The notes under the pieces are model-generated. The model did no database searches. It was not told the DNA's origin and saw nothing but the letters and a program-made list of their open reading frames with translations. Shown here piece by piece: positions 1 to 15,978 of a DNA stretch of 15,978 nucleotides (positions within the stretch are counted from its first letter, which is position 1; the number at the start of each line of letters is the position of its first letter). The position numbers were made by a program, and so were the translations under genes. Origin of the DNA: Candidatus Aenigmatarchaeota archaeon (GTDB taxonomy: Archaea; Aenigmatarchaeota; Aenigmatarchaeia; Aenigmatarchaeales; JACQIB01); assembly GCA_043799675.1 (NCBI GenBank), contig JAZDNN010000019.1, positions 1 through 15,978 of the forward strand. Reading direction: 5' to 3'.

Positions 1-55
1 TCAATAGGCTGAGGCGATATCAGTCCGATGGGCCGCGGCGATATCAGCCGACATC

Positions 56-63
56 TTTAAAAA
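56..63 (+). promoter_or_regulatory. putative archaeal TATA box for topA
   Basis: TTTAAAAA in an AT-rich stretch about 35 bp upstream of the likely topA start. Confidence 0.45.
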
Positions 64-96
64 GTACCCTATATTATTAGCCGCAACGGTGTGTGT

Positions 97-2385
97 TTGA
101 CAGCGACAATTATCATCGCGGAAAAGCCGGATGCGGCGGCGCACATTGCGGAGGCGCTTGCGGAAGGAAGGGCAAAGAAGCATGCAGGCGAGGTGGGTGC
201 TGATTACTGGGAATTCATGAGAAACGGCAAGCAGCATATTGTCGTAGCTGCTGTCGGTCATTTGTTCAACCTCAAGCAGGCGGGAAAAGCGGGATGGAGC
301 TATCCGGTGTTCGAAGTGGAATGGGCCCCTTCCTGGAAAATCCGGAAGAAGAGCGAGTTCTCCGGGAAATACTTCAGGACCATCGAGCAGTTCAAGGGGA
401 AGGCGAAGGACTTCATCATCGCCTGCGACTACGATAACGAAGGCTCCGTCATCGGCTATAACATACTCAGGTACATCTTCGAAGAGAATGAAGCAAAGCG
501 GATGAAGTTCAGCACGCTGACCAAGCAGGATCTCCAGAAAGCGTATGATGAGGCGGACAAAACTCTTGATTGGCAGAACATCGAGTGCGGTCTCGCAAGG
601 CACATCCTGGACTTTTACTACGGAATCAATTCATCGAGAGCGCTTACTTTGGCAATCAAAAAATCCAGTTCACGGTTTGCATTGCTTTCCGCAGGAAGGG
701 TGCAAGGGCCCGTGCTGTGCATGCTGTCCGAAAGGGAGAAGGAAATCAAGGCGTTCAAGCCGACGCCGTTCTGGCAATTGCAGGCAAACCTTCTGCTTGA
801 CGGAAAGGAGCTGTTGGCCGAACATGAGACCGACAAGTTCTGGGACCGGGCAAAGGCGGAGGCGGCGCTGAAGAACAGCAAGGGAAAGGCAATGGTGGAG
901 AGTATAGAGAAGAAGGAATACAGGCAATCCCCGCCGGTGCCGTTCAACATAACAAGCTTGCAGACGGAAGCTTACCGTTTGTTCGGTTACAGCCCGCAGC
1001 AGACGCTGAACATAGCGCAGGACCTTTACACGAAAGCGTTCATCAGCTACCCGAGAACAAGCAGCGAGAAGTTCCCACCGCAGATAGGATTCAGGGACAT
1101 CCTTCAGGCAATAGCAAAGATAAAGAAGTATTCGAACCTTGCAGGCAAGCTGCTCGCACTGAAGGAGCTGATACCCAGCGAAGGCAAGCGGACCGACCCT
1201 GCGCACGAGGCAATCCATCCGACGGTCGAGCCGCCGAGCGACGTAATGAAGCTCACCGGCCAGCAGAGGAACATCTACGATTTAGTTGTGCGCAGGTTCT
1301 TTGCATGCTTCGGGGAAGCGGCAGTGAGAGAAAGTGCCAAGATAGGCATGAACATAGGCGACCAGCCTTACAGCATAACAGGAAGAAGGACGCTCAAGCC
1401 GGGCTGGATAGAGTTCTACGGTCCGCTCGCGAAGTTCGAGGAAATAACACTGCCTGACCTGAAGAAAGGCGACAAGGTCGACGTCAAGAAAGTGGAGATG
1501 CTGGACAAGGAGACCCAGCCGCCCGCGCGCTGGAGCCAGGCAGCGATGATAAAGGAAATGGAGAAAAGAAATCTTGGCACTCGTGCGACAAGGGCTGCGA
1601 TCCTTCAGACGCTGTACGACCGCTACTATGTGACCGACAAGTCGGTGCGTGTTACCGATTTAGGAATGGCTGTTGCACAGACGCTAAAGAAATACGTACC
1701 TGATCTGGTGGACGAGCAGCTGACCAAGCAGTTTGAGATAGACCTTGAGAAAATACTACAGGGCAAGGTCAAGAAGGAGAAGGTGCTTGAGGAAGCAAAG
1801 AAAGCTCTAATCAAGATTTCCGAGGAGTTCAAAGCCAATGAAGATAAGATAGGAAAGGAACTGGGTAAGGCGGTCGTAAGCAGCCAAGATGACAGGAACA
1901 CACTCGGGCCGTGCAAGAATTGCGGCGGCAAGCTGAAGGTGCTGTTCAGCCCGTGGACCAAGAAACATTTCGTGGGATGCTCAAGTTACAGCCGTTGCAA
2001 GCTGTGCGGCTTCACCAAGACCGCATGCAAGTGCGAATGCCCGATATGCAAGCAGCCGAAAGGCAAATGCGAGCACCCGTGGAAGGAGAAGGTTTGGAAC
2101 CCGAGCTGCCAGACCGGCTATCCGTTGCCTCATAATGCCAGCTTCCAGAGGCTTGACAAGACATGCGAGAAGTGCAGCACACCTATGATAAGGGTCATCA
2201 GAAAAGGCAAAAGGCCGTTCAACATGTGCCTGGACCCGAAGTGCGAGACCAAGGCCGACTGGGGAAAGCCGAAGGAAATGAAAGCAAAGAAAGCCAGAGC
2301 AAAGCTCAAAGAGCTCAAGGGCGATACAAAACTCACGAACAAACAGAAGATAAAGGAAATCGTGAAGAAGCGAGCAAAGAAGTAA
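97..2385 (+). CDS. topA: type IA DNA topoisomerase (archaeal Topo I/III) with C-terminal zinc ribbons and Lys-rich tail
   Basis: TOPRIM motifs IIAEKP, GHL and DYDNEG; SAGRVQ; catalytic Tyr in ISYPRT; AHEAIHPT; GTRATR; C-terminal Cys clusters. TTG at 97 is preferred because GGTG lies at 88-91; GTG at 91 is the alternative start. Confidence 0.96.
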   Translation: MTATIIIAEKPDAAAHIAEALAEGRAKKHAGEVGADYWEFMRNGKQHIVVAAVGHLFNLKQAGKAGWSYPVFEVEWAPSWKIRKKSEFSGKYFRTIEQFKGKAKDFIIACDYDNEGSVIGYNILRYIFEENEAKRMKFSTLTKQDLQKAYDEADKTLDWQNIECGLARHILDFYYGINSSRALTLAIKKSSSRFALLSAGRVQGPVLCMLSEREKEIKAFKPTPFWQLQANLLLDGKELLAEHETDKFWDRAKAEAALKNSKGKAMVESIEKKEYRQSPPVPFNITSLQTEAYRLFGYSPQQTLNIAQDLYTKAFISYPRTSSEKFPPQIGFRDILQAIAKIKKYSNLAGKLLALKELIPSEGKRTDPAHEAIHPTVEPPSDVMKLTGQQRNIYDLVVRRFFACFGEAAVRESAKIGMNIGDQPYSITGRRTLKPGWIEFYGPLAKFEEITLPDLKKGDKVDVKKVEMLDKETQPPARWSQAAMIKEMEKRNLGTRATRAAILQTLYDRYYVTDKSVRVTDLGMAVAQTLKKYVPDLVDEQLTKQFEIDLEKILQGKVKKEKVLEEAKKALIKISEEFKANEDKIGKELGKAVVSSQDDRNTLGPCKNCGGKLKVLFSPWTKKHFVGCSSYSRCKLCGFTKTACKCECPICKQPKGKCEHPWKEKVWNPSCQTGYPLPHNASFQRLDKTCEKCSTPMIRVIRKGKRPFNMCLDPKCETKADWGKPKEMKAKKARAKLKELKGDTKLTNKQKIKEIVKKRAKK

Positions 2386-2402
2386 CCGCGCTACATCTTG
2401 CG

Positions 2403-2408
2403 TTTAAA
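2403..2408 (+). promoter_or_regulatory. putative TATA box for a leaderless transcript of the orphan ORF
   Basis: TTTAAA ending about 25 bp upstream of ATG 2433, the spacing expected for leaderless archaeal mRNA. Confidence 0.45.
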
Positions 2409-2432
2409 TGTTTTTGCATGTTACCAACAGCG

Positions 2433-3086
2433 ATGAAGCTTTCAAAAGAGAGAATAGCCGGCATGATAGGACCGATATCGAAACGACCGGCCCTGTTGCG
2501 CGGCACGGCCGTTGAGTCCGTACTGACCCTTTTTGAAACAGGCAAGCTGTTCCCGGACAGACGATGTGACAGAAACACACGGGATTATCTGTATTTTGTG
2601 CCTGTGAGCAGGGAGCTGCCCGTGAGTCTTCGTGACGACGGCTGGCGCAGCAGGTCTGATGCCATCGAGTCGGCTGAATTGTATGCAGCCGATAACGGCG
2701 AGGAGCGGCACATAATGGAGTGCATAATGAAGGCAGGAATACCGAAATCGAAGGCGGAGATGATAAAATGCGAATGGCTGTGCGACATTAGCCACAGGAT
2801 ACCCGCATATGCAAGAAAGATTGCAAACGGACTCGACTATAAGGACATCTACAAACGCGCAGAAAAATACAATGGTGTAATCATAGAAGTCGGTAAAGGC
2901 GTTCTTGGAATGAAATTGGAAATCGACCCGGAGGGCGAAGGCGTAAGGTTACGTTGTCCGTCCGGACTGCCCGCGAAATACGTCAAAAGGATAGAACCGC
3001 AGGGGCGAAAGGAAAAGGAAATACTCAAAACGTATCTGGCTGGCAAAAGAAATTACCAAGAACATGCCGAAAAGACGAAGAAGTAA
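2433..3086 (+). CDS. hypothetical protein (217 aa), possible ADP-ribosyltransferase-like fold
   Basis: Fills the gap between topA and pyrE and has its own TATA-like box. Ordered motifs LLRGT..ESVLTLFETGKL, YLYF, AELYA, GVIIEV and LPAKYVKRI. The ORF-track start at 2163 overlaps topA; ATG 2418 is an alternative start. Confidence 0.7.
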   Translation: MKLSKERIAGMIGPISKRPALLRGTAVESVLTLFETGKLFPDRRCDRNTRDYLYFVPVSRELPVSLRDDGWRSRSDAIESAELYAADNGEERHIMECIMKAGIPKSKAEMIKCEWLCDISHRIPAYARKIANGLDYKDIYKRAEKYNGVIIEVGKGVLGMKLEIDPEGEGVRLRCPSGLPAKYVKRIEPQGRKEKEILKTYLAGKRNYQEHAEKTKK

Positions 3087-3101
3087 GTCAAATCATCTAA
3101 T

Positions 3102-3686
3102 CTAGCACTGCAGCACGATTTTTCCGGATTCCGAAGTCGTATTGCGCCTTTCCATTATTTCCCTGCGCTTGATGAGGGATATCAGGTTTATACCTTCTTT
3201 CCTCAGAGCATCCGTTGCACCTTCCTCCCTATCTACAAGCACGTAGGCGTCCTTCACGACCAGGCCCTCGTCCCTGCATACCTTTGCGGCAAAGCTTATG
3301 CTGCCTCCAACGGTAGCAACATCCTCGACTATCAGCACCTCCATTTTGGGCTCATAGTCGCCCTCAATCTGCCTTCTGGTCCCATGCTCCCTTTGCTCCT
3401 TTCTTACCAGTAGCTGTTCAATGTCCGTTTCCAACGATAGTGCAGTCGCAAGGGGCGTTCCGCCGATCGGAACAGAACCGATCCTGTCATATGATTCAAA
3501 TTTCAGTTCCGGTTTTCTCAGGGACAGATAGTTATACTCCCTCAGTATTCTGGGCTTCGTGCTGACCTTCTTTATATCGATGTAATAGTCGCTTTCTTTC
3601 CTTGATGTAAGAAGGAATTTTCCAAATCCTATGGCGCCTACTCCTATCATTCCGTCAATCAAATGGTCAACGCTGTATACGCCCAA
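3102..3686 (-). CDS. pyrE: orotate phosphoribosyltransferase (divergent)
   Basis: FGKFLLTS..ESDYYID, loop VRKEQREHGT, PRPP-binding VLIVEDVATVGGS, LVDREEG; TTG start with GGTGG upstream. Confidence 0.9.
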   Translation of the reverse strand: MGVYSVDHLIDGMIGVGAIGFGKFLLTSRKESDYYIDIKKVSTKPRILREYNYLSLRKPELKFESYDRIGSVPIGGTPLATALSLETDIEQLLVRKEQREHGTRRQIEGDYEPKMEVLIVEDVATVGGSISFAAKVCRDEGLVVKDAYVLVDREEGATDALRKEGINLISLIKRREIMERRNTTSESGKIVLQC

Positions 3687-3727
3687 ATTCCCACCACTAC
3701 AACAAAGGCGTTTAGCAAGGATTTATA

Positions 3728-4414
3728 TCAGAACAGCCGCAGCTTGCTGACTTCCTTCAGGCCATCGTTGGTTATCTGGAACTCTATCTGCTTGTCCTCG
3801 GGCATGCTCCTTGCCCTTGCTATCCTTGCTATACGGCACGAGGTGCGGCCCGCATGCGAAAGCTCCACCATGTTCTTGCTCCACCATTTCACCACGTTCT
3901 TGGCGCTGAGCTCTATCTTTCCGGTGTCGGGCTCGGAGTAGACCTGGTTGGTTATCAGGATAGGAATATTCTTCTCGCGTGCAATCTTTGAGAGTACCGA
4001 GAGCTGGGAACCGAGCTCGCGACTTATGCTCTGGAAATTGCTGTCGTCTATTGTAACACGCCACTGTGCCACTATGCTGTCCACAATTATGATGCCCAAT
4101 TGCTCCCTTTTCGCTATCGCTTCAACCCTGTTGAATGTTGACTTCTGTTCTTCCCAGTTCTTCGGTTCGAGCAGTATCATCTTGTCCGTGTATCTCCGTG
4201 TGCCGCCTATCATCTGTTCCATCCGTTCCTGGGAGAAACCGCCCTCCGTGTCGATGTAAAGAACCTTCTTTCCAAGGTTGATGGTACTGATTGCCGCACA
4301 CAACGCTATGTTGGTCTTGCCTGTCGCGGCGGGACCGTAGAAGTTGGTGATGCAGCCCGGCTCGAGGCCGCCGCCCAACAGCTTGTCTATCGGAGAACAG
4401 ACAGGAAGGCGCAT
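3728..4414 (-). CDS. radB: DNA repair and recombination protein RadB
   Basis: 228-aa RecA-core-only protein: IDKLLGGGLE, Walker A GPAATGKT, YIDTEGGFS, Walker B IIIVDS, ITNQVY, FQITNDGL. Confidence 0.92.
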   Translation of the reverse strand: MRLPVCSPIDKLLGGGLEPGCITNFYGPAATGKTNIALCAAISTINLGKKVLYIDTEGGFSQERMEQMIGGTRRYTDKMILLEPKNWEEQKSTFNRVEAIAKREQLGIIIVDSIVAQWRVTIDDSNFQSISRELGSQLSVLSKIAREKNIPILITNQVYSEPDTGKIELSAKNVVKWWSKNMVELSHAGRTSCRIARIARARSMPEDKQIEFQITNDGLKEVSKLRLF

Positions 4415-4438
4415 GCAAAGTTCATGGGAGCAGAAAGC

Positions 4439-4445
4439 TTTATAT
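4439..4445. promoter_or_regulatory. putative TATA element in the divergent radB / cdc48-operon intergenic region
   Basis: TTTATAT lies about 25 bp from the radB ATG and about 40-50 bp from the starts at 4484/4496, so it could serve either direction. Confidence 0.45.
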
Positions 4446-4462
4446 GCTTGTTAGTATGTATT

Positions 4463-4495
4463 GTAAGTAAACTTTTGGCATGGATGGTAAGTAAA
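4463..4495 (+). repeat. 9-bp direct repeat GTAAGTAAA x2 (4463-4471, 4487-4495)
   Basis: Exact copies 24 bp apart, between the TATA-like box and ATG 4496. Confidence 0.6.
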
Positions 4496-4861
4496 ATGGA
4501 ACTGAGAATCAGGCGCCAAGGGAGTAACGATGCGATACTCATAAGTTTCGATACCAATGCGGAGAAGTTCGAGTCGGCTTACGAGAGGAACAAGTTCTTT
4601 TCCGAGCTTCACGGAAGGAAGCAGGTAATCATCAGGCAGGGCAAAAGGTACGAATACAGGAGAGAGGGGCTGCTGGACGAGGTCCCTAACTTAAGAGTTG
4701 CCAACTCGGTCTTTATTGTGATGCAGGAGCACATGAAGATGATGGAAAGATTCTTTGACGGGTGGGAGGACAAGGTCATGTTCAAAAGCTTCCCTGTGTT
4801 GCTGAACAACAAGGAAATGAAGGAGCTCGAGGAAAGCAATGAAAAGGAGGTAATCGCATGA
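4496..4861 (+). CDS. small hypothetical protein, Cas2/VapD/PaaX-central-domain-like ferredoxin fold (tentative)
   Basis: ILISFDT followed by helix ERNKFFSEL and later RVANSVFIV, resembling Cas2 hhhxYD...QxSVF. The stop overlaps the cdc48 start (ATGA 4858-4861). Alternative start at 4484. Confidence 0.7.
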   Translation: MELRIRRQGSNDAILISFDTNAEKFESAYERNKFFSELHGRKQVIIRQGKRYEYRREGLLDEVPNLRVANSVFIVMQEHMKMMERFFDGWEDKVMFKSFPVLLNNKEMKELEESNEKEVIA

Positions 4862-7143
4862 TGGGGGATGAGAAAGGAACGAAGGACATCAAGCTCAAGG
4901 TCGGTGAACTGACAGGAAGGGAGGATTTCGGTCGTGGAATAACCAGGATAGACAGCGCAACGATGAAGGTCCTTGGCGTCAAGGAAGGCGACCTCTTAGA
5001 GATAGAGGGCAAGCGCAAGACCTCGACCATAGCGGTCAGAGCTTACCCTGCCGATGTCGGGCTCAATGTGGTCAGGATAGACGGATTGGTCAGGAACAAT
5101 GCCGGCGCCCCCATAGGCGAGCATGTCATCGTCCGCAAAGCGGACATCAGGGAAGCGAAGAAGGTATGCCTTGCCCCGGCGGAAAAGGGCATAAGTTACA
5201 GGGTCAGTCCGTCGCTCATCGGACAGAACATCTTCAGACGCCCCGTTACAAAGGGGGACATCATACTTCCCAAGAAAGTTTTCAGGCTCAGAGAGGACAA
5301 CGATATAGCAGACGTCATGAGCATGTTCGGTCTGAGCCCCGAAGTGTTCATCCCGTCGGATGTGAAGTTGATCGTTCTAAAGACCGAACCTGCCGGGTCG
5401 GTGCAGATAACCGAGATGACCGAACTCGAAGTGCTCCCGGAAGCCGCTGAAATAAAAGAACTGGAACGGGTCCCGATGGTCACTTACGAAGATCTCGGAG
5501 GCCTGGGAAACGTCGTGCCGAAAATACGGGAAATGATAGAACTTCCATTAAGGCATCCCGAAGTTTTCAGCAGGCTCGGCGTTGAGCCACCTAAGGGCGT
5601 ATTGCTTCACGGGCCGCCCGGTTGCGGCAAGACACTGCTTGCAAAGGCGGTAGCCAACGAATCCGGTGCGCATTTCATCAGTCTTGCAGGCCCGGAAATC
5701 ATGAGCAAGTGGTACGGGCAGTCCGAAGAGAACCTGAGGAAGGTTTTCGATGATGCGGAGAAGAATGCGCCTTCAATAATCTTCATCGACGAGGTGGATT
5801 CCATCGCCCCAAAGCGGGAAGAGGTCACCGGAGAGGTGGAGAGAAGGGTTGTGTCGCAGTTGCTGACAGTGATGGATGGCTTGAAGTCACGCGGCAAGGT
5901 GGTGGTGATTGCCGCCACCAACAGGCCGAATGCCATAGATCCCGCCCTGAGGAGACCCGGAAGATTTGACAGGGAAATAGAGATACCCGTCCCGGACAAG
6001 AAAGGACGGAAGGAAGTCCTGCAGATACATACGCGGAACATGCCCCTGGAAAAGGGCGTGGATATCGACAAGCTTGCCGAAATAACATACGGGTTTGTCG
6101 GAGCGGATTTATCGGCTCTTGCGAAGGAGGCGGCAATGCATTCGCTCAAGCGGGTACTGCCGGAGATAACCGACCTCAAGGAGAACGAGCCGCTGCCCAA
6201 GGAGCTGCTTGAGAAGATACAGGTGACCAAGGAGGATTTCGAATACGCCATGAGGATGGTGCAGCCCTCGGCAATGAGGGAAGTGCTCGTCGAAGTCCCG
6301 AAGGTGAAGTGGGCGGACGTAGGCGGATTGCCTGACGTGAAGGGCGCGCTCAAGGAGGCGGTCGAGTGGCCGCTGAAAGATCCGGAAAGCTTCAAGCGGA
6401 TAGGCATCAGGCCGTCGCGCGGCATAATGCTTTACGGCCCGCCGGGTTGCGGAAAGACCTTCATAGTGAAGGCGCTGGCCAACGAGTCAGGCACGAATTT
6501 CATATCGATTAAAGGACCAGAACTGCTTTCCAAATGGGTCGGAGAGAGCGAGCAGCACATCAGGGACATATTCAGAAGGGCAAAGCAGGTCGCGCCCTGC
6601 ATAGTGTTCTTCGATGAGATAGACGCGCTCGCGCCCAGAAGGGGAATGGATGTCGGGTCAAGGGTGACCGAGCAGGTCGTTTCACAACTGCTCACGGAAA
6701 TGAGCGGCATCGAGGAAATGGAAGGTGTCGTGATAATTGCCGCCACCAACAGGCCGGACATCGTGGACCCCGCTCTCCTCAGACCCGGGCGGTTCGACAG
6801 GCTCATTTACGTACCGGCTCCCGATACGAAAACCAGGCTGGAAATAATGAAAATACATACCAGAGGAATGCCGTTGAAAGAGGTCGACCTGGAGAAGCTG
6901 GCTGAGAAGGCCGACGGTTACAGCGGTGCGGACCTGGAGGCGCTCGTAAGAGAGGCGGGAATGAACTCCCTGAGGGAGAACATCAAAGCAAAGGAAGTGA
7001 CAAAGAAGCAGTTCGACGAGGCGCTCAAGAAGGTAAAGCCCAGCATAACCGAGGACATGTTCGCGAAATATCAGAGAGCGGTGGAGGACATAAAGAAAAC
7101 GAAGCTTGAGGAAAGCGAGAAGATGTCAAGGTACGTAGGGTGA
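4858..7143 (+). CDS. cdc48: CDC48/VAT family AAA+ ATPase
   Basis: N domain plus two AAA modules: GPPGCGKT twice, Walker B IFIDE/FFDE, pore loops KWYG/KWVG, SRH AATNRP..DPAL.RPGRFD twice; RBS GGAGGT at 4846-4851. Confidence 0.98.
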   Translation: MMGDEKGTKDIKLKVGELTGREDFGRGITRIDSATMKVLGVKEGDLLEIEGKRKTSTIAVRAYPADVGLNVVRIDGLVRNNAGAPIGEHVIVRKADIREAKKVCLAPAEKGISYRVSPSLIGQNIFRRPVTKGDIILPKKVFRLREDNDIADVMSMFGLSPEVFIPSDVKLIVLKTEPAGSVQITEMTELEVLPEAAEIKELERVPMVTYEDLGGLGNVVPKIREMIELPLRHPEVFSRLGVEPPKGVLLHGPPGCGKTLLAKAVANESGAHFISLAGPEIMSKWYGQSEENLRKVFDDAEKNAPSIIFIDEVDSIAPKREEVTGEVERRVVSQLLTVMDGLKSRGKVVVIAATNRPNAIDPALRRPGRFDREIEIPVPDKKGRKEVLQIHTRNMPLEKGVDIDKLAEITYGFVGADLSALAKEAAMHSLKRVLPEITDLKENEPLPKELLEKIQVTKEDFEYAMRMVQPSAMREVLVEVPKVKWADVGGLPDVKGALKEAVEWPLKDPESFKRIGIRPSRGIMLYGPPGCGKTFIVKALANESGTNFISIKGPELLSKWVGESEQHIRDIFRRAKQVAPCIVFFDEIDALAPRRGMDVGSRVTEQVVSQLLTEMSGIEEMEGVVIIAATNRPDIVDPALLRPGRFDRLIYVPAPDTKTRLEIMKIHTRGMPLKEVDLEKLAEKADGYSGADLEALVREAGMNSLRENIKAKEVTKKQFDEALKKVKPSITEDMFAKYQRAVEDIKKTKLEESEKMSRYVG

Positions 7144-7147
7144 TGAA

Positions 7148-7492
7148 ATGGATGACAAGAGAAGGATAAACGTTAACGTCGATCACAGCGAGCCCGTGTT
7201 CTTCACCGATAACGTCACGGTGTGGCACAATCCCCAGAAGTTCGTGATGGACTTCACCAATGCGACGCCGCGCTTCGACAAGGTGGGGGAAGAGAACCAG
7301 CAGACCATCGCAGTGAAGCACAAGACCCTGATAATGGACCCCATACTTGCAAAAATATTCCTCGGTGTCCTGAAGGACAATGTCGAAAAGTACGAGAAGA
7401 ACATCAGTAAAATAGCAATGCCGAAGCCATCTAAGATCAAGCAGATAAAACCGTCAAGACTTGCCGACGCCGCGAGCAAGTATATAGGCTAA
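7148..7492 (+). CDS. DUF3467-like small protein
   Basis: Pattern FFTDNVTV.HNPQKFVMDF...IMDPILAK.FL.VLKDNVEKYEK recalls DUF3467 (beta strands then a long helix ending YE). It starts 4 bp after cdc48 with GGTGA RBS over the cdc48 stop. Confidence 0.75.
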   Translation: MDDKRRINVNVDHSEPVFFTDNVTVWHNPQKFVMDFTNATPRFDKVGEENQQTIAVKHKTLIMDPILAKIFLGVLKDNVEKYEKNISKIAMPKPSKIKQIKPSRLADAASKYIG

Positions 7493-7707
7493 GCCCTTTT
7501 CTTTGCCAGCTCGATGTCTTCCTTTTTGACGGTCTTTCGACCGGCGTGCTCGGATAAGCTGACAGAATCCTTCGCTATCCTGATCGCGAATTCATGGACC
7601 ACGGCCGCCAAAGCCCTTGCAGCGTCATCGCTCACCCTGTCCGCTCCCGCGGCCTTCAGGATATCGACCATCGGGGCCGCTGCAATCACACTCCGCTTGC
7701 GTGGCAT
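7489..7707 (-). CDS. archaeal histone (HMf family, single fold)
   Basis: AP..ILKAAGADRVSDDA...HAGRKTVKKEDIELA matches the HMfA/HMfB pattern. Confidence 0.95.
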   Translation of the reverse strand: MPRKRSVIAAAPMVDILKAAGADRVSDDAARALAAVVHEFAIRIAKDSVSLSEHAGRKTVKKEDIELAKKRA

Positions 7708-7728
7708 AAATCAGTTTAAGATGGTCGG

Positions 7729-7736
7729 TTTATAAA
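7729..7736 (-). promoter_or_regulatory. TATA box of the histone gene (probably leaderless)
   Basis: Consensus TTTATAAA 22-29 bp upstream of ATG 7707. Confidence 0.65.
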
Positions 7737-7760
7737 TCAAGCTGGCACTTGGATTATTTT

Positions 7761-7775
7761 CTTTTGCTCGTCACG
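7761..7775. repeat. 15-bp motif copy 1 (CTTTTGCTCGTCACG)
   Basis: 14/15 identical to 8688-8702; lies in the map-histone intergenic region. Confidence 0.7.
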
Positions 7776-7796
7776 CCTTGTGCCGGAGAAATTTCA

Positions 7797-8678
7797 TCAG
7801 AGAGTTATCACTATCGGTTTGTCTGCAACAATCACGGTGTGCTCGGCCTGGGCAACAGGCTTGCCGGAAACTTCCTTCAGGATGTTGTAAGGATAGAGGG
7901 AACCAAGCTTTACCAACTGGTTGAGGGCAAGGTCCACGTTGCCGAACTTTTCCTGTGCCCATCTCCTGGCGAATGGAAGCTTTTGCCAATCATTTTTTGC
8001 CGCCGCGAGCAGCTGCCTGGCAAGAGGCAGCCTCGGAGGCCTGTCGGAAATCCACCTGAATATGGTCGGAGGGGGGCTGTCTTTCACCATGCCCTTACCT
8101 GCCGTCACGAACGGTTCGACCCCGTATGCCTCTCCTTCGCTGAGCACCTTCGGCGCCGGACCGCGGATGCATGGTATGACAACGCCGCCATGCACGGTCC
8201 AGCGGTCAAGAGCATGCCCTGTGAGATTGGCCACCGGCTTGAAACCATACTTTATTGCCACATCTTCCATCACGGCGCTGATGTCCTCGATGATGGTTCC
8301 CGGCACGAACATCGGGATTGCGGCGGCAAGCATCTTCTCCGCGCATTCAATCATGGAATCCTTTCCTGCCGGTCTGACGGTGATGGCGGTGTCTGCAATC
8401 CAACCATCCACGTGGACCCCGATGTCGAGCTTGACGTAATCCCCCGCCCTGATTTTCAGCGGGTCGTTCAGTAACGGGGCATAATGGGCCGCGACATCAT
8501 TGATGCTCACGGTCGCTTGGAACGCCGGCCTGGCACCGAGCGCGATTATTTTCTTTTCAACGGCAGCAGCGATATCGACGGCCTTAGCGTTCTCCTTTAT
8601 CATCTTCGCGCCGAACTCACGTGCTGTAGCACAAATCCTGCCCGCTTTCTTGTAGGCGTCCAACGTTTCTTTTTCCAT
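7797..8678 (-). CDS. map: type II methionine aminopeptidase
   Basis: SINDVAAHY, KLDIGVHVDGWIADTA, NLTGH, VEPF and QAEHT metal-ligand motifs plus the type II helical insert. ATG 8678 follows GGTGG; GTG 8687 is the alternative start. Confidence 0.96.
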   Translation of the reverse strand: MEKETLDAYKKAGRICATAREFGAKMIKENAKAVDIAAAVEKKIIALGARPAFQATVSINDVAAHYAPLLNDPLKIRAGDYVKLDIGVHVDGWIADTAITVRPAGKDSMIECAEKMLAAAIPMFVPGTIIEDISAVMEDVAIKYGFKPVANLTGHALDRWTVHGGVVIPCIRGPAPKVLSEGEAYGVEPFVTAGKGMVKDSPPPTIFRWISDRPPRLPLARQLLAAAKNDWQKLPFARRWAQEKFGNVDLALNQLVKLGSLYPYNILKEVSGKPVAQAEHTVIVADKPIVITL

Positions 8679-8687
8679 TTCATCCAC

Positions 8688-8717
8688 CTTTTGCTCGTTA
8701 CGTTTTTGTCCGTCACA
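8688..8717. repeat. 15-bp motif copies 2 and 3 in tandem (CTTTTGCTCGTTACG, TTTTTGTCCGTCACA)
   Basis: Copy 2 matches 7761-7775 at 14/15 and copy 3 at 11/15; together they fill most of the polB-map intergenic region. Confidence 0.65.
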
Positions 8718-8731
8718 CCCTTTTATCGGGA

Positions 8732-11152
8732 TTATATCAGTTGTTCCTTCTTCACGCCGAGCGCTGCAAGCACACGATAGCTCGGCGGCACAATCTGCTT
8801 CTCGATGTAGTACTTAATATCTATGTCCTTCAGGCTTGCATCCTCGATGGGCTCGGCACGGTTGCTGATGCTTTCCTTGCCTTTGGTTATCACGTAAATC
8901 ATGACCGAACCCTCCCCGACCGGTCTGCCTCTGGCAATCATCTTCTTTGCGACGACCACGTTCGGTGCGGTGACCTTGTACTCGGAAAGGGGCTTTGCCA
9001 GTGATTCGTAGATTGCAAGGTCGCGCAGCGGAACCTTTCCGGATTTCAACCTGCTTACGGCATCCTTGACCGTTTCTATCGCTCCTTTCATGTCCTTCTT
9101 GCTGAGAACGAGCCTGAGCACCTCCTCCTGCGTCGCCTTTGCCAGCTCGCACCAATCGCCCCTGACCCGTTCCAGGCCGCGGATGGTCAGCTTCCCCTTT
9201 TCGTCCATCAAAGCATACCGTTTCTTGGCTGCTCCCCCCGCTTCCAGCGGGGTGAATATTCCGCGCCTGTAGAAGCCCTGCAAATCGATTTCAATCATTC
9301 CCGGCAGCTTCTTGTTGGTATTTTCAATGAACTTGGTCACGTTTTTTTCCAGCTTCCCTTTTCCGTTCAGCTTGACGAACATCGAGTCCGTGTCACCATA
9401 AATTATGGTGAAGCCGGCCTCTTCCGCCCAGCTCATCACTTGCTTAATCCAATAGCGGCCGAATGCCGCCGCCGATTCCGCGCATTCGTAGCAGTACCAG
9501 AGCGCGCCCGGATAGCCCATGATGCCGTAAGTGGCATTGGTGATCGTCTTCACGCCGAACTGTTCATTGTCCAGCTCGCGCCATTCCACCGTTCCGGGTT
9601 TCATACCTTTCAGCTGCTTCTTCAGTTCCACGCGACGTTCTATCAATTCCGATGCCCTCTCGGAGACGAAACCGCGATGTTTTTTGCAGAACCAGTATTT
9701 CCTGTCCGGTACCTGCCAGCCTTCAGCCTTTGCACAGTGACCGAAGGTCTCCGGGCTGATGTTGAACGTTGCGATTATGGAAGGATAGAGGGAACGGAAA
9801 TCAAGCACGGCGAGCTCCTCATGCAGGCCCGGTAACGGGTCACGGACATAGCCGCCGATGTATTGCGGCTTCCTCTGCCTTTGCAGGATTTCATCAAACT
9901 TCGGCTGGTTCGGCGGTATCATATTGAGTTCCAGTGCCCTCTTCACCATGTACCATTCGGAAAGCTGCCCGTAGGTCATCCTGGAAACATCGTACGGGGA
10001 CTGGCAGACTATCCGTGTCAGGGCCAAAATCTGGTGCATGAGCATCCCGTTGAGCTTTATGCAAAGTTCGCTGTCCTTCAGCGAATAGGCGGCAAGCTTT
10101 GCAAGGTCCTTTTTCTTCTGCCAGGCTTCCAGGAGCTCCTCGAATTCCATCGGTATCTTCCTGTCACCGAGGAGCTCGGCACAGATGGAATCGAGCGTCA
10201 TCACTTCGGTCTGCAGATGGGGGGCAAGAATCGTAAGAGCCCAACTGAACAAATCCAAGTGGACCCTCCCCCTCAACCGCGCCCTTGCCACCTTCACCCT
10301 TCTTGCATAGCGTGGAGCGGAACCGTCCCTGCTGAGGGGAAGCCTCACCCTGAGGTCGGCAGCCCGCTGAAGAATCAGCTTGAAGTCGTGTTCATCGGTC
10401 ATGAAGCCTACCAGCATGTCCGGGTCCTGAGCATTGACGTGCTTCACGAAAGATTCGAGCAAAGATTTCTCGTCCTTGACCACTTCGACCCAGCTCTGAA
10501 AAGCCGCCTTCTGCCAGGTTATCACTTTCTTGAACCCGTCCTTGCCGGCCATGCTCAGCATGATTATTTTCTGCCTTCCGGCTTCCTCGACGTTCTCTAT
10601 GTCGAACGCAAGGATTTTCAACGGAGGGGCGTCCGCATGGGCAGCAGATTTTACAGAACTGGCGCGAATGATTCTGTCGACCTGCCACTCATCGCTCTTT
10701 TCCTCCTTTCCTTCAATCTCTATCCAGTCCGCGGGGGTGATACCCTTTTCGATAGGGTAGCGTTTGGAGTGGCTGACGGCATACTGGTATTCTTCGATGA
10801 CCGTTCCGGGTCCGCCGCGCTCGGCTTCAAGCAACTTGACCATGTCCCTTACCTTCTGCAGGTCCGAGGAAAGATTTGTGTACACCTTCAGCACCCTCTG
10901 CTCCTCGGCACCTATCCGGCGGGAAACGATTTCCGTTTTCAATATGCCGATGTCCGCATGCTTCCTCGAAAGTTCAATCACGATTTCCTGAAGCTTGGTC
11001 TCGGCGCCGGGTTTCGGCTGGATGTACAGGTAGGGAATGAAACTTTCGTCCAGCACCGCAACCGTCTTTCCATTCACATCCTTGCACCAGAGCCTTACGA
11101 CGGTCCTTCCGTTCTCGTCGTAATGATCCATATCGAGAAGCCACAATCGCAT
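8732..11152 (-). CDS. polB: family B DNA polymerase (PolB3-like)
   Basis: ExoI AFDIE, ExoIII YSLKD, motif A DFRSLYPSII, motif B KTITNATYG, motif C YGDTDS, KKRYA, RGLERVRGDW; no intein-sized insertion. Confidence 0.97.
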   Translation of the reverse strand: MRLWLLDMDHYDENGRTVVRLWCKDVNGKTVAVLDESFIPYLYIQPKPGAETKLQEIVIELSRKHADIGILKTEIVSRRIGAEEQRVLKVYTNLSSDLQKVRDMVKLLEAERGGPGTVIEEYQYAVSHSKRYPIEKGITPADWIEIEGKEEKSDEWQVDRIIRASSVKSAAHADAPPLKILAFDIENVEEAGRQKIIMLSMAGKDGFKKVITWQKAAFQSWVEVVKDEKSLLESFVKHVNAQDPDMLVGFMTDEHDFKLILQRAADLRVRLPLSRDGSAPRYARRVKVARARLRGRVHLDLFSWALTILAPHLQTEVMTLDSICAELLGDRKIPMEFEELLEAWQKKKDLAKLAAYSLKDSELCIKLNGMLMHQILALTRIVCQSPYDVSRMTYGQLSEWYMVKRALELNMIPPNQPKFDEILQRQRKPQYIGGYVRDPLPGLHEELAVLDFRSLYPSIIATFNISPETFGHCAKAEGWQVPDRKYWFCKKHRGFVSERASELIERRVELKKQLKGMKPGTVEWRELDNEQFGVKTITNATYGIMGYPGALWYCYECAESAAAFGRYWIKQVMSWAEEAGFTIIYGDTDSMFVKLNGKGKLEKNVTKFIENTNKKLPGMIEIDLQGFYRRGIFTPLEAGGAAKKRYALMDEKGKLTIRGLERVRGDWCELAKATQEEVLRLVLSKKDMKGAIETVKDAVSRLKSGKVPLRDLAIYESLAKPLSEYKVTAPNVVVAKKMIARGRPVGEGSVMIYVITKGKESISNRAEPIEDASLKDIDIKYYIEKQIVPPSYRVLAALGVKKEQLI

Positions 11153-11189
11153 ATACTAGTTTTTATTCCCGTTCTTATAATCATGAGCA

Positions 11190-11729
11190 ATGCCTTACTA
11201 CACGCGCGCGGGTGATGCGGGCAAGACAGGCATATGCGACCAGAACAGGATAAGCAAGGCATCGCAAAGGATAGCCGCCATAGGGGACGTTGACGAACTC
11301 AACTCTGTCATCGGGTTGTGCAGGACGATATGCAAGGACAGTCAGATAGACGAAATTCTCGGGCATGTCCAGAACGGTCTGTTCGTTTTGGGGTCGGATT
11401 TGGCTGCCCCGCTGGACTCAAGATCCAAGGCTGTGAGAATGGACAAGGGACAGACCGAGCGGCTGGAAAAGGACATAGATGACATAATGTTGGACGTAGG
11501 TGAACTTCAAAATTTCATCCTGCCGAGCGGAACCGAACTGGCGGTGAGGCTGCATTTCACCAGGTCGTTGTGCAGGCGGGCGGAGAGGGCGGTATGCACA
11601 CTGGCCGAGAAGGAGAAAATAAATCCGGCGGATTTGCCATACATCAACCGTCTGAGCAGCCTGCTGTTCGTTCTTGCGCGGCTGGCGAACAAGAGGGCCG
11701 ACGTGAAGGATGTCGAGTGGAAGAAATAG
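11190..11729 (+). CDS. pduO: PduO-type ATP:cob(I)alamin adenosyltransferase
   Basis: YTRAGDAGKT, GDVDELNS, FILPSG, RSLCRRAER, YINRLS. Confidence 0.93.
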   Translation: MPYYTRAGDAGKTGICDQNRISKASQRIAAIGDVDELNSVIGLCRTICKDSQIDEILGHVQNGLFVLGSDLAAPLDSRSKAVRMDKGQTERLEKDIDDIMLDVGELQNFILPSGTELAVRLHFTRSLCRRAERAVCTLAEKEKINPADLPYINRLSSLLFVLARLANKRADVKDVEWKK

Positions 11730-11804
11730 ACGGAATTCACTGCATAACGGTCCGAAGTGCTATTCGGTTATTTAAGGCTTGCAGTCCGAATAATCGGCGA
11801 TTGA

Positions 11805-13202
11805 ATGGACATACTTTTTGTCAATCCCAGAGGCACCTTCACGCCCATGCCGCCGCTCGGCCTGATGATAATGAGCGCGGTGGTCAGGGAGAAGGGCTTC
11901 ACGGTGGCCATACTGGATGCGGAGAACCGGAAGCTTGACGACCGGCAGCTGGAAGAGGAGATAAGAAGGTTCAAGCCGGCCATAGTGGGCGTACCGGTGT
12001 TCACACCGACCTACGGGCAGGCACTGGATGCGATGAGGACCGCAAAACGGATAGATCCTTCCATAACGACGGTCGCGGGAGGCTCGCACGCGTCGATATA
12101 CCCGGAAATACTCGATAACAAGGAGGTCGATTACGTCGTCAGGGGCGAGGGGGAGATAACGTTCCTTGAGCTGGTCGAATTCATCCTGCATGGCAAGGGG
12201 CGTAAGGAGGAAATCAAGGGCATATCTTACATGGAAAACGGATGCCTGGTCAACAATCCCGCCCGGGAACTCATACAGGACCTCGACAAGATCCCGTGGC
12301 CCGCGCGCGACCTGCTGCCGATAGAGAAATACCCGGGAATTCTCATGCCCAAGAGGCGGCCCGAGACGCAGGTGATGGGCATGCGCGGATGCCCGTTCAG
12401 GTGCGCCTTCTGCTCGAGCGCCGTGTTCGGGAAGACCCTGCGTTACAGGAACCCCCTCAACGTGGTCGATGAGGTGGAATTCCTGGTCGAAAGGTACGGA
12501 ATAAAGACCATATACTTCTTCGATGACGGACTGAATTACAGGGCGGACTGGCTCAACACGATATGCGACGAGTTCATCAAACGGGGCCTCAACGAAAAGA
12601 TGGAATGGAAGGGGCAGGTCAGGGTCAACTCGCAGTTCGTCAACCAGGAGCTGCTGAACAAGATGCACAAGGCAGGCTGCTGGCTGCTGGCGTGGGGGAT
12701 AGAGAGCGGGAACCAGAACGTGCTCAACAACATACACAAGTCGATAACCCTGCAGGAAGTGGAGAACGCCATAAGGATGTCCGCCAAGGCCGGAATCCGC
12801 AACATGGGATTCTTCATGGCCGGCAACATGACGGAGACCAAGGAGACGGTGAACGATACCATAAGGTTCGCAAAGAAGCTGATGCACAACGGGCTGGATT
12901 ACGTCCAATGGGCGCTGGCTACACCGTACCCCGGGACTGAATTCTACGAAGTATGCAAGAAGAACGGCTGGATAAAGGTAAGCAGGTGGGAGGACTGGAG
13001 GGACGACAAGCGCCACGTCATAATAGACATGCCGGGGCTTCCGCAGGCATGGATGCAGCAGTCGTACGAGGACGCTTACAGGGCGTTCTACATGAACCCG
13101 TATTACATAGCCAGGCAGGTGTCGAAGATCAGGAGCATCGATGACGTCAAGCTGATGGCAAGCGGCCTGGGCTGGGTCCGCAGGGCGATAAAGGAGACCT
13201 AG
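11805..13202 (+). CDS. cobalamin-binding radical SAM protein (class B methyltransferase-like)
   Basis: N-terminal B12-binding domain (PPLGL, GGSHAS, RGEGE), RGCPFRCAFC CxxxCxxC motif, FFDD, GIESG, TPYPGT. Confidence 0.93.
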   Translation: MDILFVNPRGTFTPMPPLGLMIMSAVVREKGFTVAILDAENRKLDDRQLEEEIRRFKPAIVGVPVFTPTYGQALDAMRTAKRIDPSITTVAGGSHASIYPEILDNKEVDYVVRGEGEITFLELVEFILHGKGRKEEIKGISYMENGCLVNNPARELIQDLDKIPWPARDLLPIEKYPGILMPKRRPETQVMGMRGCPFRCAFCSSAVFGKTLRYRNPLNVVDEVEFLVERYGIKTIYFFDDGLNYRADWLNTICDEFIKRGLNEKMEWKGQVRVNSQFVNQELLNKMHKAGCWLLAWGIESGNQNVLNNIHKSITLQEVENAIRMSAKAGIRNMGFFMAGNMTETKETVNDTIRFAKKLMHNGLDYVQWALATPYPGTEFYEVCKKNGWIKVSRWEDWRDDKRHVIIDMPGLPQAWMQQSYEDAYRAFYMNPYYIARQVSKIRSIDDVKLMASGLGWVRRAIKET

Positions 13203-15978
13203 TCGCTCCAGAACTTTTTGGTCGCGATAAATTGTCTTTCGGCCGCTAGGATGTCCTTGTATAATTCATCTTCATTCCTATGCATACGTGCGAGTATACG
13301 GCCAGCCGTTTGAGGTCCAACCCCACGACCGGCAAGGACAACGGCCCCGGCGCGGCCATAACAAATCATCATGTCCGCGCTCCTCCTGATTCTCTCCAGC
13401 TTCTTCTGCTCCTCGTCTGTCAGAGACTTGCCTTTCAGGCGTTTCTTGATTATGTCCGGCGCTTCGGTCATGTACGGATGGACGCAGGCAAGGAGCTTGC
13501 TGGCGCACTTGGGGCAGCGGGGCTCCTTGTCAACATCATTGACAGGCATTGCTATGGAATAATTGCCGCAATTGACGCAGACCAACCTGATGCGGGTGTT
13601 CAGCAGCCGCTGCCTGAACACCTTCTGTATCTCCGCCTCCGGCCTGTCCGGCCTCGCCACGTCATGCAGCTCGTACTTCAGTCCGGCCTCGGCCATCGGA
13701 CTCAGGCCCTTCGTTTCGGTCAGCTTGATTTTACCCGACCTTATCTGTTCGAGCATCCTTTCTGCCGCCTCCACGTCAAGCTTCTCGGTGAATATCTCGT
13801 TGAGCGTTTCAAGGGAGACCGGGCTGTTCTCATATGCCTTCACAATCCGGTCGATGTTCACCCTGCTGAAATCGGCATCCTTGCGTATCGCACCTATCCT
13901 CTTGCCTACCTGCAGGAAGCGGTGCTTGAACAGGCTGGTGTTCGGAAGGGCCAGGGTCAGCACGGATCGGATGTCCTCCGGCTTGTATTTCTCGAACACC
14001 TCGCGGATGTCCTTGGCAAGCACGGAACCGAACACTATCCTGTACGGGTCGGATTTGCAGGCTATGGTCCTGCCCTGCTCGGCGGAAAGCAAGGCGGAAA
14101 TGAAACGGGCAAGCGTTTCATTGGCCAAAGAACCGAACGGGCTGTGCAGGACGGTGAACTCTCCGAAAGTTTCAATGATAATATGTTTGTCGTCGGGCAA
14201 CGGCCACTTCATCTGCGCCTTCACGTATGCTACCATGCGCGCGGCGGCCTGCGAGGTCAGCGGATAGCGCATCTTCAGGTGGTTGGACACTTCCGTGGCG
14301 GACTTTCCAGTTTTCAGGTCTCCAGCAACCTCTCTTCTGATGACCCCGACCTCCTGTGCGATGCTGAACGGGACCGGAATCAGCTCTCCTTCCCATGCGG
14401 GGACGGCGCTTTCCAGGCCGGATGCAGGCTCAACATACACCTTGTCCTTCTCTATCTGCACCACGCGCCATGGCCTCCCTTTTATCACGAAAGTGCTGCC
14501 GGACTCATTGTGCTCAGCCACGAACATCTCGTCGAGGGAGCCTATCGGGACGTTTGCGGTTATGTCAATCACGCGGTAGGTATGCGAGTCCGGGATGGTC
14601 GACATGCCGCCGAAGTAATACTCGAAGGCCCGCCTTTTCCTTGCCAGACCGTTATCGACGAACAGCAGGTGGATGCCCGCGAGGAACTGGACCATATCGA
14701 AGAATTCCTTGGATGTCATGTCCCTGAAAGGAAAGGCGCGCCTGATGATACCATATGCTTTCTCAATCGGGATGCGGTAGTCGGACATGGCAAGGCCGAT
14801 TATCTGGTGGGCCAGCACGTCCATGCTCTTGTCATGCAGCCGCGGAATTTCCAGTTCGCCTGCCAGGGTCTTGCGTGCTATGACCGCCGCCTCAAAAATA
14901 TCATCGTCATCGCCCGCAAGGATTATACCCTTGCTGACCTTTTCCAGGGAATGGCCCGCGCGGCCCAGTCGCTGGGTGAACTGGCTGACCTCGCGGGGCG
15001 ACATGTACTGGACAACCAAATCCACCGAGCCGATGTCTATACCCAACTGCAGGCTTGATGTGCAAAGGATGGCCTTCAGTTTCTGTGCTTTGAAGTCCTT
15101 CTCGGTCTGTATACGGGCCTCCTTCGACAGCGAGCCGTGATGGACCTCAAGCGGCATCTCGGTATCCATGTTCTTGAGCCTGCTTGCCAGGATTTCCGCC
15201 GCCTCGCGCGTGTTGGTGAAAATCAGGGAAGCTTTGTGTTCATCGATGAGGTCGTGGATGGTACGAAGCCTGGCCGCGACGGTATCGCCTATGAACAGCT
15301 TCTCCGCCATCAGTTTGTCTTCCTGCTTCGGGAACGGCGCATCGACCATCACTTTGAGGTTCTTTTTGGTGAACGTGTTGATGATCTTGTGTGGCCGACC
15401 CCCGAACATGAATTGCGCGACCCCTTCCGGATTGCCGACCGTGGCCGACAGACATATCATCTGGAAATCGCCGCAAAGTTCCCTCAGGCGCTCCAAAGCC
15501 ACCGTCAACTGGACGCCGCGCTTGCTGTCGACAAGCTCATGGACCTCATCGATTACGACCCACTTCACGTTCCTGAGCAGGGCCTTCATCCTTTCTCCGA
15601 CGAGCATGGCCTGGAGCTGCTCGGCGGTGGTCAGGAACATCTCGTCCGGATTTTCCAGCTGCACCTTCCGTTCATGCTGGGTGGTGTCGCCGTGCCTGAC
15701 AGTGACGCCGAAATCCAGCCGCTGCGCCCACCAGGCCACCCTTTCGAGCAGGTCGCGGTTCAGGCTCTTCAACGGCGTGATGTAGAGGAGCGCTATCGGC
15801 TTCGGTTTATCTTTGAACAGCTTGTCGAACAGAGGGACGAGCACGGCCTCGGTCTTTCCTGAACCCGTCGGGGCCATCAGAAGGACATTCTTACCTTCGA
15901 TTATCGGGGGGAATGCCAGCTCCTCGGCTGGGGTGGGCGTATCGAAACGCTCGGCTACGACTTTCTGGACTTCCGGTG
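13199..15978 (-). CDS. lhr: Lhr-family DEXH helicase with C-terminal Cys4 extension (5' end outside the window)
   Basis: The frame stays open to the window edge (PEVQKVVAERFDTPTPAEELAFPPIIEGKNVLLMAPTGSGKT). Motifs YITPLKSLNRD, RHGDT, DEVH, SAT, HHGSL, LGID, QRLGRAGH, STIPD, PAWEGE; CVNC..CPKC. Confidence 0.95.
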   Translation of the reverse strand, partial: PEVQKVVAERFDTPTPAEELAFPPIIEGKNVLLMAPTGSGKTEAVLVPLFDKLFKDKPKPIALLYITPLKSLNRDLLERVAWWAQRLDFGVTVRHGDTTQHERKVQLENPDEMFLTTAEQLQAMLVGERMKALLRNVKWVVIDEVHELVDSKRGVQLTVALERLRELCGDFQMICLSATVGNPEGVAQFMFGGRPHKIINTFTKKNLKVMVDAPFPKQEDKLMAEKLFIGDTVAARLRTIHDLIDEHKASLIFTNTREAAEILASRLKNMDTEMPLEVHHGSLSKEARIQTEKDFKAQKLKAILCTSSLQLGIDIGSVDLVVQYMSPREVSQFTQRLGRAGHSLEKVSKGIILAGDDDDIFEAAVIARKTLAGELEIPRLHDKSMDVLAHQIIGLAMSDYRIPIEKAYGIIRRAFPFRDMTSKEFFDMVQFLAGIHLLFVDNGLARKRRAFEYYFGGMSTIPDSHTYRVIDITANVPIGSLDEMFVAEHNESGSTFVIKGRPWRVVQIEKDKVYVEPASGLESAVPAWEGELIPVPFSIAQEVGVIRREVAGDLKTGKSATEVSNHLKMRYPLTSQAAARMVAYVKAQMKWPLPDDKHIIIETFGEFTVLHSPFGSLANETLARFISALLSAEQGRTIACKSDPYRIVFGSVLAKDIREVFEKYKPEDIRSVLTLALPNTSLFKHRFLQVGKRIGAIRKDADFSRVNIDRIVKAYENSPVSLETLNEIFTEKLDVEAAERMLEQIRSGKIKLTETKGLSPMAEAGLKYELHDVARPDRPEAEIQKVFRQRLLNTRIRLVCVNCGNYSIAMPVNDVDKEPRCPKCASKLLACVHPYMTEAPDIIKKRLKGKSLTDEEQKKLERIRRSADMMICYGRAGAVVLAGRGVGPQTAGRILARMHRNEDELYKDILAAERQFIATKKFWSD

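Follow-up and report, generated by a model that had tools for sequence, protein, structure and literature searches.

Why should an unfoldase and the small protein encoded directly behind it end in almost the same five residues, and what in the cell would read such an ending? The question is raised by a stretch of 15,978 nucleotides from a Candidatus Aenigmatarchaeota archaeon (GenBank assembly GCA_043799675.1, contig JAZDNN010000019.1, positions 1 to 15,978 of the forward strand), which we call the window, and in which cdc48 is followed after 4 nucleotides by a gene for a DUF3467 protein. The source genome comprises 749 kb in 45 contigs and is 83% complete; the window is its contig C9. The features on which the question turns are the following.

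4858-7143 (+): cdc48, encoding a VAT-like double-ring AAA+ unfoldase of 761 amino acids with CDC48_N, CDC48_2, two AAA and two AAA_lid_3 domains
7126-7140 (+): C-terminal tail of Cdc48, S-R-Y-V-G (TCA AGG TAC GTA GGG, stop TGA to 7143); the protein ends KMSRYVG
7144-7147: spacer of 4 nucleotides from the cdc48 stop to the DUF3467 ATG, read from the sequence
7148-7492 (+): DUF3467 gene, 114 amino acids, PF11950 match
7199-7417 (+): DUF3467 core (residues 18-90), three long antiparallel strands then one helix, from the Pfam match and an AlphaFold2 model
7418-7474 (+): Lys/Pro-rich flexible linker (residues 91-109) of varying length and sequence, from alignments and a predicted local distance difference test (pLDDT) score of 43-69
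7475-7489 (+): C-terminal tail of DUF3467, S-K-Y-I-G (AGC AAG TAT ATA GGC, stop TAA to 7492); the protein ends AASKYIG

We propose that the Y-hydrophobic-Gly ending is the tail by which proteins of this lineage would dock on the alpha ring of the 20S proteasome, with its tyrosine one position before that of the hydrophobic residue-tyrosine-any residue (HbYX) motif, and that DUF3467 would be an ATP-independent cofactor of the proteasome or of Cdc48. Judged on the sequences we consider this probable, with considerable room for error. Residues are counted below from the C-terminus, P1 being the last, P2 the penultimate and P3 the third from last.

The shared tail within the genome

Re-reading and translating the window placed both tails exactly where the original prediction had them and in the codons it had given, SRYVG on cdc48 and SKYIG on the gene that starts 4 bp downstream. 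The two 15-nucleotide stretches are identical in 8 of 15 bases and use different codons for Ser, Lys/Arg, Tyr and Gly; the likeness is therefore one at the protein level, as had been argued, rather than the trace of a DNA duplication.

The frequency of such endings was determined in two sets of open reading frames (ORFs) from the 749-kb genome, a full set of 3785 of at least 60 amino acids and a greedy non-overlapping set of 888. Only five of the 3785 end in Y[IVLMF]G, and all five of these end in [KR]Y[IV]G. Among the 888, [KR]Y[IV]G stands at the C-terminus in 4 cases where 0.033 would be expected, while anywhere in the same proteins it occurs 10 times against an expected 8.7. The excess is thus specific to C-termini, and chance is excluded as the cause of the shared tail. 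The five bearers are Cdc48, DUF3467, a PAC2-family protein (LKYIG), a protein of 146 amino acids (SRYIG) and a B12-binding radical-SAM enzyme (SKYIG).

Conservation of the tail in DUF3467

The sets of DUF3467 homologues compared here overlap in part, and their members are kin and so not independent of one another. All 23 homologues at 52-95% identity end in [KR]YIG, with Y112, I113 and G114 invariant, whereas the roughly 20 residues before the tail vary in length and sequence. Loci from named DPANN genomes (n=16) end in YIG in 15 cases and YFG in one, and the 30 loci returned from a sample of 151 genomes of the phylum end in YIG in 29 cases and YID in one. To look further afield we used a profile search of 1.84 billion cluster representatives at 50% identity, which gave 1844 matches at E <= 0.001. 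In the best 150 of these, where the tails were read, 100 end in Y-[IFMLVY]-G (YIG 46, YFG 23, YMG 15, YLG 8, YVG 7, YYG 1) and 113 have Tyr at P3. Among the weakest hits of a word-indexed search, the three with bacterial names (two from Echinicola, one from Opitutae; no other hit is named as bacterial) carry no such tail, and eight others, the named ones from Heimdallarchaeota, have aromatic-hydrophobic-any endings (GFIK, GFLK, GFMQ, EFMH, EYMH).

The conservation on which the original prediction had staked its case therefore extends well beyond close relatives, and it is not a conservation of the linker. As far as the sequences go, the tail is a property of an archaeal branch of DUF3467 and not of the domain itself, and it tracks the proteasome-bearing archaea.

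Cdc48, PAC2 and SecB-like proteins with the same tail

The identity of Cdc48 rests on CDC48_N (82 bits), CDC48_2 (30.6 bits), two AAA domains (330 bits) and two AAA_lid_3 domains, and its closest solved chains are those of the Thermoplasma VCP-like ATPase. In relatives, Cdc48 ends in [KR]YIG at all 15 loci where it neighbours DUF3467, being adjacent in 14 and about 0.9 kb away in one (L012). Five genomes that have no DUF3467 gene have Cdc48 proteins ending in YIG (4) and YTG (1). Four other DPANN genomes and one gene fragment give YIG, YMG, YMG, YVD and YFG. Separately, the Cdc48 reading frames of eleven genomes run to 1200-1885 amino acids against about 765 (G008, G011, G015, G017, G022, G034, G042, G045, G048, G050 and G053), which suggests inserted elements such as inteins.

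The PAC2-family protein of this genome (PF09754, E 7e-48) ends in LKYIG. The family is present in 148 of the 151 phylum genomes, and the PAC2/PbaB homologue ends in YIG at 29 of 30 phylum loci, including those of families that have no DUF3467; the tail was also found in 4/4 other DPANN genomes. That a PbaB homologue should carry the same ending strengthens the proteasome reading.

The fourth bearer has the following location.

L103:1498-1938 = G000:C10:20834-21274 (-): protein of 146 amino acids ending SRYIG, no Pfam or NCBIfam family

Its relatives occur in 114 of the 151 genomes, and none of 30 members has a Pfam match at a meaningful E-value. Half of these 30 end in Y[IV]G or YIA, and the other 15 are without the tail. 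The predicted structure (pLDDT 84) has a SecB-like fold, aligning with Rv1957 at Z 10.9 (root-mean-square deviation, rmsd, 3.4 over 124 residues) and with SecB at Z 9.6, and a Foldseek search gave E 2.4e-4. Archaeal holdases of the SecB-like kind in which a docking tail is optional appear to be undescribed so far. We also considered whether DUF3467 might be kin to this family, which was ruled out by a profile-profile probability of 2.2%.

The radical-SAM enzyme does not appear to belong with the other four. None of its 24 relatives, taken as long ORFs in their loci, and none of 6 paralogues shares the tail, so that its SKYIG ending is probably chance. It lies at L181:1093-2751 (-) on G000:C26, and seven paralogues of this enzyme occur in the genome, including one at 11805-13202 of the window.

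The 20S alpha ring as candidate receptor

A proteasome alpha subunit was found in 41 of 41 genomes, and two proteasome-family genes in each of five relatives. The residues that form the pocket between alpha subunits, P17, G19, R20, E25, Y26, K66 and G80 in Thermoplasma acidophilum numbering, are the same in all 28 alpha sequences compared; K66 corresponds to K68 in the protein's own numbering. The only variable pocket positions are L81 (L in 16, I in 7, F in 4, S in 1) and V82 (L in 20, I in 5, V in 3).

The ATPase PAN (TIGR01242) scored above cut-off in none of the 61 phylum genomes searched, all matches being the AAA modules of Cdc48. As a possible substitute we considered the only AAA protein of this genome that has a canonical ending.

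L007:898-2262 = G000:C31:9742-11106 (+): single-ring AAA ATPase of 454 amino acids with the canonical end NLYR; its N-terminal 150 residues are of unknown nature

It scores far below the PAN cut-offs of NCBIfam, and 60 other genomes of the phylum contain no orthologue of it; it was therefore rejected in this role, and may be a recent acquisition. As an observation apart, the Woesearchaeota-labelled genome G151 encodes a single-ring AAA protein of 395 amino acids (L097:1129-2316, +) with the HbYX-type end HMFG (Met-Phe-Gly), beside a Cdc48 ending in AYMG and a DUF3467 ending in SYFG.

The 20S ring is the most economical reader in view of three things: an intact pocket, the lack of a canonical tail on any conserved ATPase, and an alternative tail on exactly those families for which use of this pocket is known. 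In other archaea, docking on the 20S by way of the tail has been shown for homologues of Cdc48 and of PAC2/PbaB. Cdc48 of T. acidophilum is reported to need its C-terminal tail to stimulate the 20S (PMC3493965), and for PbaB of Pyrococcus furiosus, a PAC2 homologue, the last three residues, Gly-Tyr-Leu, and Lys68 of the alpha subunit are reported as necessary for 20S binding and activation (PMC3605417). For the 20S of T. acidophilum, the Tyr at P2 is described as hydrogen-bonding to G19 with the carboxylate held by K66, the length of the bridge between the two being critical (PMC10349882).

The DUF3467 protein and its gene neighbourhood

The assignment to DUF3467, made from the letters alone in the original prediction, is borne out by a hidden Markov model search, in which PF11950 matches residues 18-90 with a score of 29.7 bits (cut-off 25); a scan of the genome gave 30.2 bits. 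The gene is single copy in the genome, and its homologues bear a precomputed PF11950 label. The AlphaFold2 model has a mean pLDDT of 77, rising to 82-96 over residues 21-90, and shows strands at 22-27, 32-46 and 49-63 and a helix at 65-85, followed by a disordered linker and the tail, one tail per chain. The Lys/Pro-rich, probably flexible linker described earlier is thus seen as variable sequence and low model confidence over residues 91-109. Fused or longer forms of DUF3467 (243-2000 amino acids) were not found, which is weak evidence by the nature of the search.

A Foldseek search with this model gave no match at E <= 0.001, and the DUF3467 profile retrieved no solved relative from the PDB, where the sole rows (E 0.55-0.6) are attributable to chance. 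Exhaustive structural alignment placed five COMM-domain chains at the top (Z 5.0-5.3 over about 58 residues, rmsd 2.4-3.4), with 8esd_S at Z 5.3 and rmsd 2.4 over 58 residues and 9q6a_A at Z 5.0, followed by Pur-alpha at Z 4.2; at Z < 8 the likeness may reflect merely a common arrangement of strands and helix.

At this locus cdc48 and DUF3467 form an operon-like run of three genes together with a small gene that precedes them.

4496-4861 (+): small conserved gene of no known family; the ORF opens at 4424, with Met 4496 the likely start

The stop of this gene overlaps the cdc48 start by 4 nucleotides, and the 4-nucleotide spacer that follows cdc48 implies that cdc48 and DUF3467 are probably co-transcribed. 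The product of the small gene has no Pfam or NCBIfam match, and its closest Atlas clusters are unnamed Aenigmatarchaeota families (score 0.95). Its homologues lie directly 5' of cdc48 at 5 of 13 loci of relatives, including three genomes that have no DUF3467, and it is a possible candidate for an additional Cdc48 cofactor.

Elsewhere in the phylum the tight junction, with cdc48 immediately upstream of DUF3467, is found at 11 of 30 loci. Among the 16 loci from named DPANN genomes cdc48 is adjacent in three, and in a fourth it lies about 0.9 kb off. Outside the order of this genome DUF3467 has neighbours other than cdc48: in 5 of 12 such loci (L018, L020, L021, L023 and L024, at about 4100-6340, +), which belong to another clade, it stands just 3' of a same-strand gene for a membrane protease of the site-2-protease-like Peptidase_M50 family. 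Both settings, cdc48 and Peptidase_M50, point to proteolysis as the context of DUF3467. An RNase HII gene lies 3' of DUF3467 in four of the same 12 loci (L011, L013, L015, L016).

On the other side of DUF3467 in the window an archaeal histone gene (7489-7707, -) converges on it, the stop-codon regions of the two overlapping by 4 nucleotides, and the same histone stands 3' of DUF3467 in L014, L017, L019 and L092, the last two being from one genome. Besides the histone, a domain search of the window found a family-B DNA polymerase, a RadB-like ATPase and an Lhr helicase; this gene content fits an archaeal origin, and the relatives in named records are Aenigmatarchaeota and other DPANN archaea.

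How the tail might work, and what else it could be

If the tail docks on the 20S, it would enter the pocket between alpha subunits with its carboxylate on K68, tethering DUF3467 to the proteasome, and in the shifted register the Tyr would lie in the hydrophobic (Hb) site and the Ile in the Tyr site, a placement by which the human 20S reads its tails (PMC8907193). The core of DUF3467, which probably self-associates, could then hold clients or partners near the gate. We can imagine three outcomes of such tethering: DUF3467 may pass the clients it binds on to the 20S or to Cdc48-20S; it may occupy the pockets that Cdc48, with six subunits on a ring of seven, leaves free, and in this way stabilise the gate or open it; or it may compete with Cdc48 and PbaB. 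A bolder version, which we offer tentatively and as a whole regard as doubtful, is that Y-hydrophobic-Gly-COOH would be a distinct, DPANN-wide address code bringing four or more chaperone-like machines of no common descent, among them Cdc48, PbaB, the SecB-like holdase and DUF3467, to the alpha ring. In this version the Tyr would be read at P3 by the human Y-Phi rule discussed below, a binding mode that would then predate eukaryotes, and DUF3467 would be a new family of ATP-independent proteasome cofactors that fill the pockets left by hexameric Cdc48, stabilising or gating Cdc48-20S.

Complex prediction, which had been suggested as a check on docking, was carried out with three alpha subunits and DUF3467 residues 76-114. 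The score was 0.33 (runs 0.40, 0.33 and 0.31), where the best of three controls scored 0.00; at least 34% of contacts are common to the runs, with a partner pLDDT of at least 37. Of 157 solved complexes 116 attain the pass mark applied, as do 2 of 215 mismatched pairs, and a pass at 0.60 or below comprises only 18 of the 157 solved complexes together with both of the passing mismatches. The pass is a weak one.

A number of observations weigh against docking on the 20S. The published HbYX pattern is [LVIMGAPFYW][FY]x (PMC3493965), and neither SKYIG nor SRYVG matches it, since, as the original prediction correctly noted, Tyr stands at P3, with Ile or Val at P2. With the Tyr one residue further from the carboxylate, the contacts to G19 and to K66 cannot both be made in the same way, and a tail in this register might bind without opening the gate, or might not bind. 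An altered pocket could have explained the shift, yet no lineage-specific change was found in the 28 alpha sequences. The support from the complex prediction is weak and possibly a memory of solved tail-20S complexes. Of the two kinds of proteasome subunit only alpha was found in this 83%-complete genome and no beta, which we attribute to the incompleteness of the assembly. DUF3467 itself is present in 61 of the 151 phylum genomes sampled, in 53 of them above cut-off, and it also occurs in bacteria in a form that has no tail, so that the core has a job independent of the proteasome. The linkage to cdc48 that the original prediction expected to recur does so, but all 11 linked phylum loci belong to the order or family of this genome. 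Nor was strict co-variation seen, one of the checks that the original prediction had named: the P2 residue does not co-vary between the families of a genome (a DUF3467 ending in YFG beside a Cdc48 in YMG, or YIG with YVD). Finally, that Y-hydrophobic-Gly tails dock on the 20S at all is something we infer from sequence.

Some of these points would suit a different receptor. It is unlikely, in our judgement, that the tail docks on a common partner other than the 20S, either a hub protein of DPANN archaea or Cdc48 itself, that gathers Cdc48, PbaB, the SecB-like protein and DUF3467. There is an analogue in eukaryotic p97, whose C-terminal LYG tail recruits cofactors with PUB and PUL domains, and the conservation and sharing of the tail point to a single receptor without naming it. 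The alpha pocket is unchanged, and the register differs from that of every tail reported to open the archaeal 20S gate (PMC3493965, PMC10349882). Such a partner would have to be reconciled, however, with PAC2/PbaB proteins, for which the proteasome is the only partner reported (PMC3605417), and with a conserved alpha pocket that, given no PAN in the 61 genomes and no HbYX on Cdc48, would be left without an ATPase tail. No PUB- or PUL-like candidate turned up, though no systematic search was made for one.

A second alternative keeps the alpha pocket as receptor and reverses the effect. Here DUF3467 would be a Cdc48 adaptor, its core bound to the Cdc48 N-domain or to clients, and its tail a decoy that blocks the alpha pockets, making it a negative regulator. 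The 4-nucleotide junction with cdc48 kept at 11 of 30 loci would fit an adaptor, as would the small size and single tail of the protein, and a tail whose register is non-canonical may occupy the pocket yet leave the gate closed if bridge length is as critical as reported (PMC10349882). We nevertheless think this improbable, because 19 of the 30 phylum loci have a tailed DUF3467 that is not beside cdc48, and because Cdc48 and PbaB carry the identical register, so that the tail of DUF3467 could be a dead decoy only if theirs were dead too.

It seems highly improbable that the tail is no docking tag but a stability or degradation signal, a site modified at the C-terminus, or a structural cap acquired separately in each family. 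A Gly end after disordered sequence does resemble many degrons, and the radical-SAM enzyme also ends in SKYIG. That ending, however, is unshared by the enzyme's 24 closest relatives in other genomes or its 6 paralogues and is apparently chance; it is not plausible that the single Cdc48 of the cell should bear a degron; and four independent chaperone or unfoldase origins together with phylum-wide invariance are hard to explain without a shared reader.

Literature and significance

A full-text literature search returned DUF3467 in a single occurrence, outside title and abstract, and never returned 'HbYX' and 'DPANN' together. Searching for 'antepenultimate tyrosine' with 'proteasome' gave as sole match HslU peptides of trypanosomatids, which is a distant analogy. 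A term search of the paper on prokaryotic COMMD-like proteins found neither DUF3467 nor Cdc48, and the proteasome in one cited title only (PMC13392464). The main text of the ProEnd database paper has no term beginning with 'DUF', although its supplements could list DUF3467 proteins, and the portion of text consulted on the Thermococcales proteasome-binding protein Pbp11 links it neither to DUF3467 nor to a tail. Docking by C-terminal tails is known in principle; within the reach of these searches, nothing has been published on this register, on its use across a phylum or on DUF3467 as one of its bearers.

Should docking of these tails on the 20S hold true, a function would be gained for DUF3467, a family of 1844 representative clusters at E <= 0.001, and throughout an archaeal phylum the sole unfoldase would be linked to the 20S by a tail that does not obey the HbYX rule. 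Partners of this kind would escape searches built on the HbYX pattern.

Comparison with known systems

In structure the nearest comparison for DUF3467 is the COMM domain of COMMD and prokaryotic COMMD-like proteins, with which its model shares three antiparallel strands and a C-terminal helix at Z < 8, though there is no sequence link between them. Dimerisation is obligatory for COMM domains, whose dimers assemble into rings, and a multivalent, tail-bearing particle could well be built in that way; we take this as a lead only.

A possible model for function is PbaB. The P. furiosus protein is reported to be both an ATP-independent activator and a chaperone, with tentacle-like C-terminal segments (PMC3605417), and so offers a picture of a small oligomer with flexible tails that holds clients and opens the 20S gate. 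The PbaB homologue in this genome shares its tail with DUF3467; the two proteins are nevertheless unrelated in sequence and fold, and the motif of P. furiosus PbaB is Gly-Tyr-Leu. A lineage-specific variant shared by an ATPase and an ATP-independent activator also has a precedent in mycobacteria, where Mpa and Bpa/PafE share the tail GQYL. That system differs in being bacterial, in its motif and in having no DUF3467.

Set against the archaeal HbYX tails of PAN, Cdc48/VAT, AMA and PbaA/PbaB, the tail described here has the same plan, a free C-terminal motif with an essential Tyr after a flexible segment (PMC3493965, PMC3605417). It is likewise common to an AAA+ unfoldase and an ATP-independent PAC2-family protein, and the alpha-pocket residues that read HbYX tails are conserved in this lineage. 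It differs in having Tyr at P3 rather than P2, with I, F, M, L or V at P2 and almost always Gly at P1.

The closest match in register is the Y-Phi rule of the human 20S, by which Tyr is reported to be required at P3, Phe or Tyr accepted at P2 and Thr preferred at P1, with valency widening the tolerance (Opoku-Nsiah et al. 2022; PMC8907193). The DUF3467 tail shares the Tyr at P3 (Y112 invariant among the close homologues; 113 of the best 150 matches) and a hydrophobic P2. The P2 residue is mostly Ile, however, being Phe or Tyr in 24 of the best 150 (YFG 23, YYG 1), P1 is Gly, and both the organism and the proteasome are different. We know of no archaeal case in which a tail with Tyr at P3 is read. 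If the tail does dock as we propose, archaea that naturally have Tyr at P3 would allow the human Y-Phi binding mode to be studied in a simple homo-heptameric proteasome.

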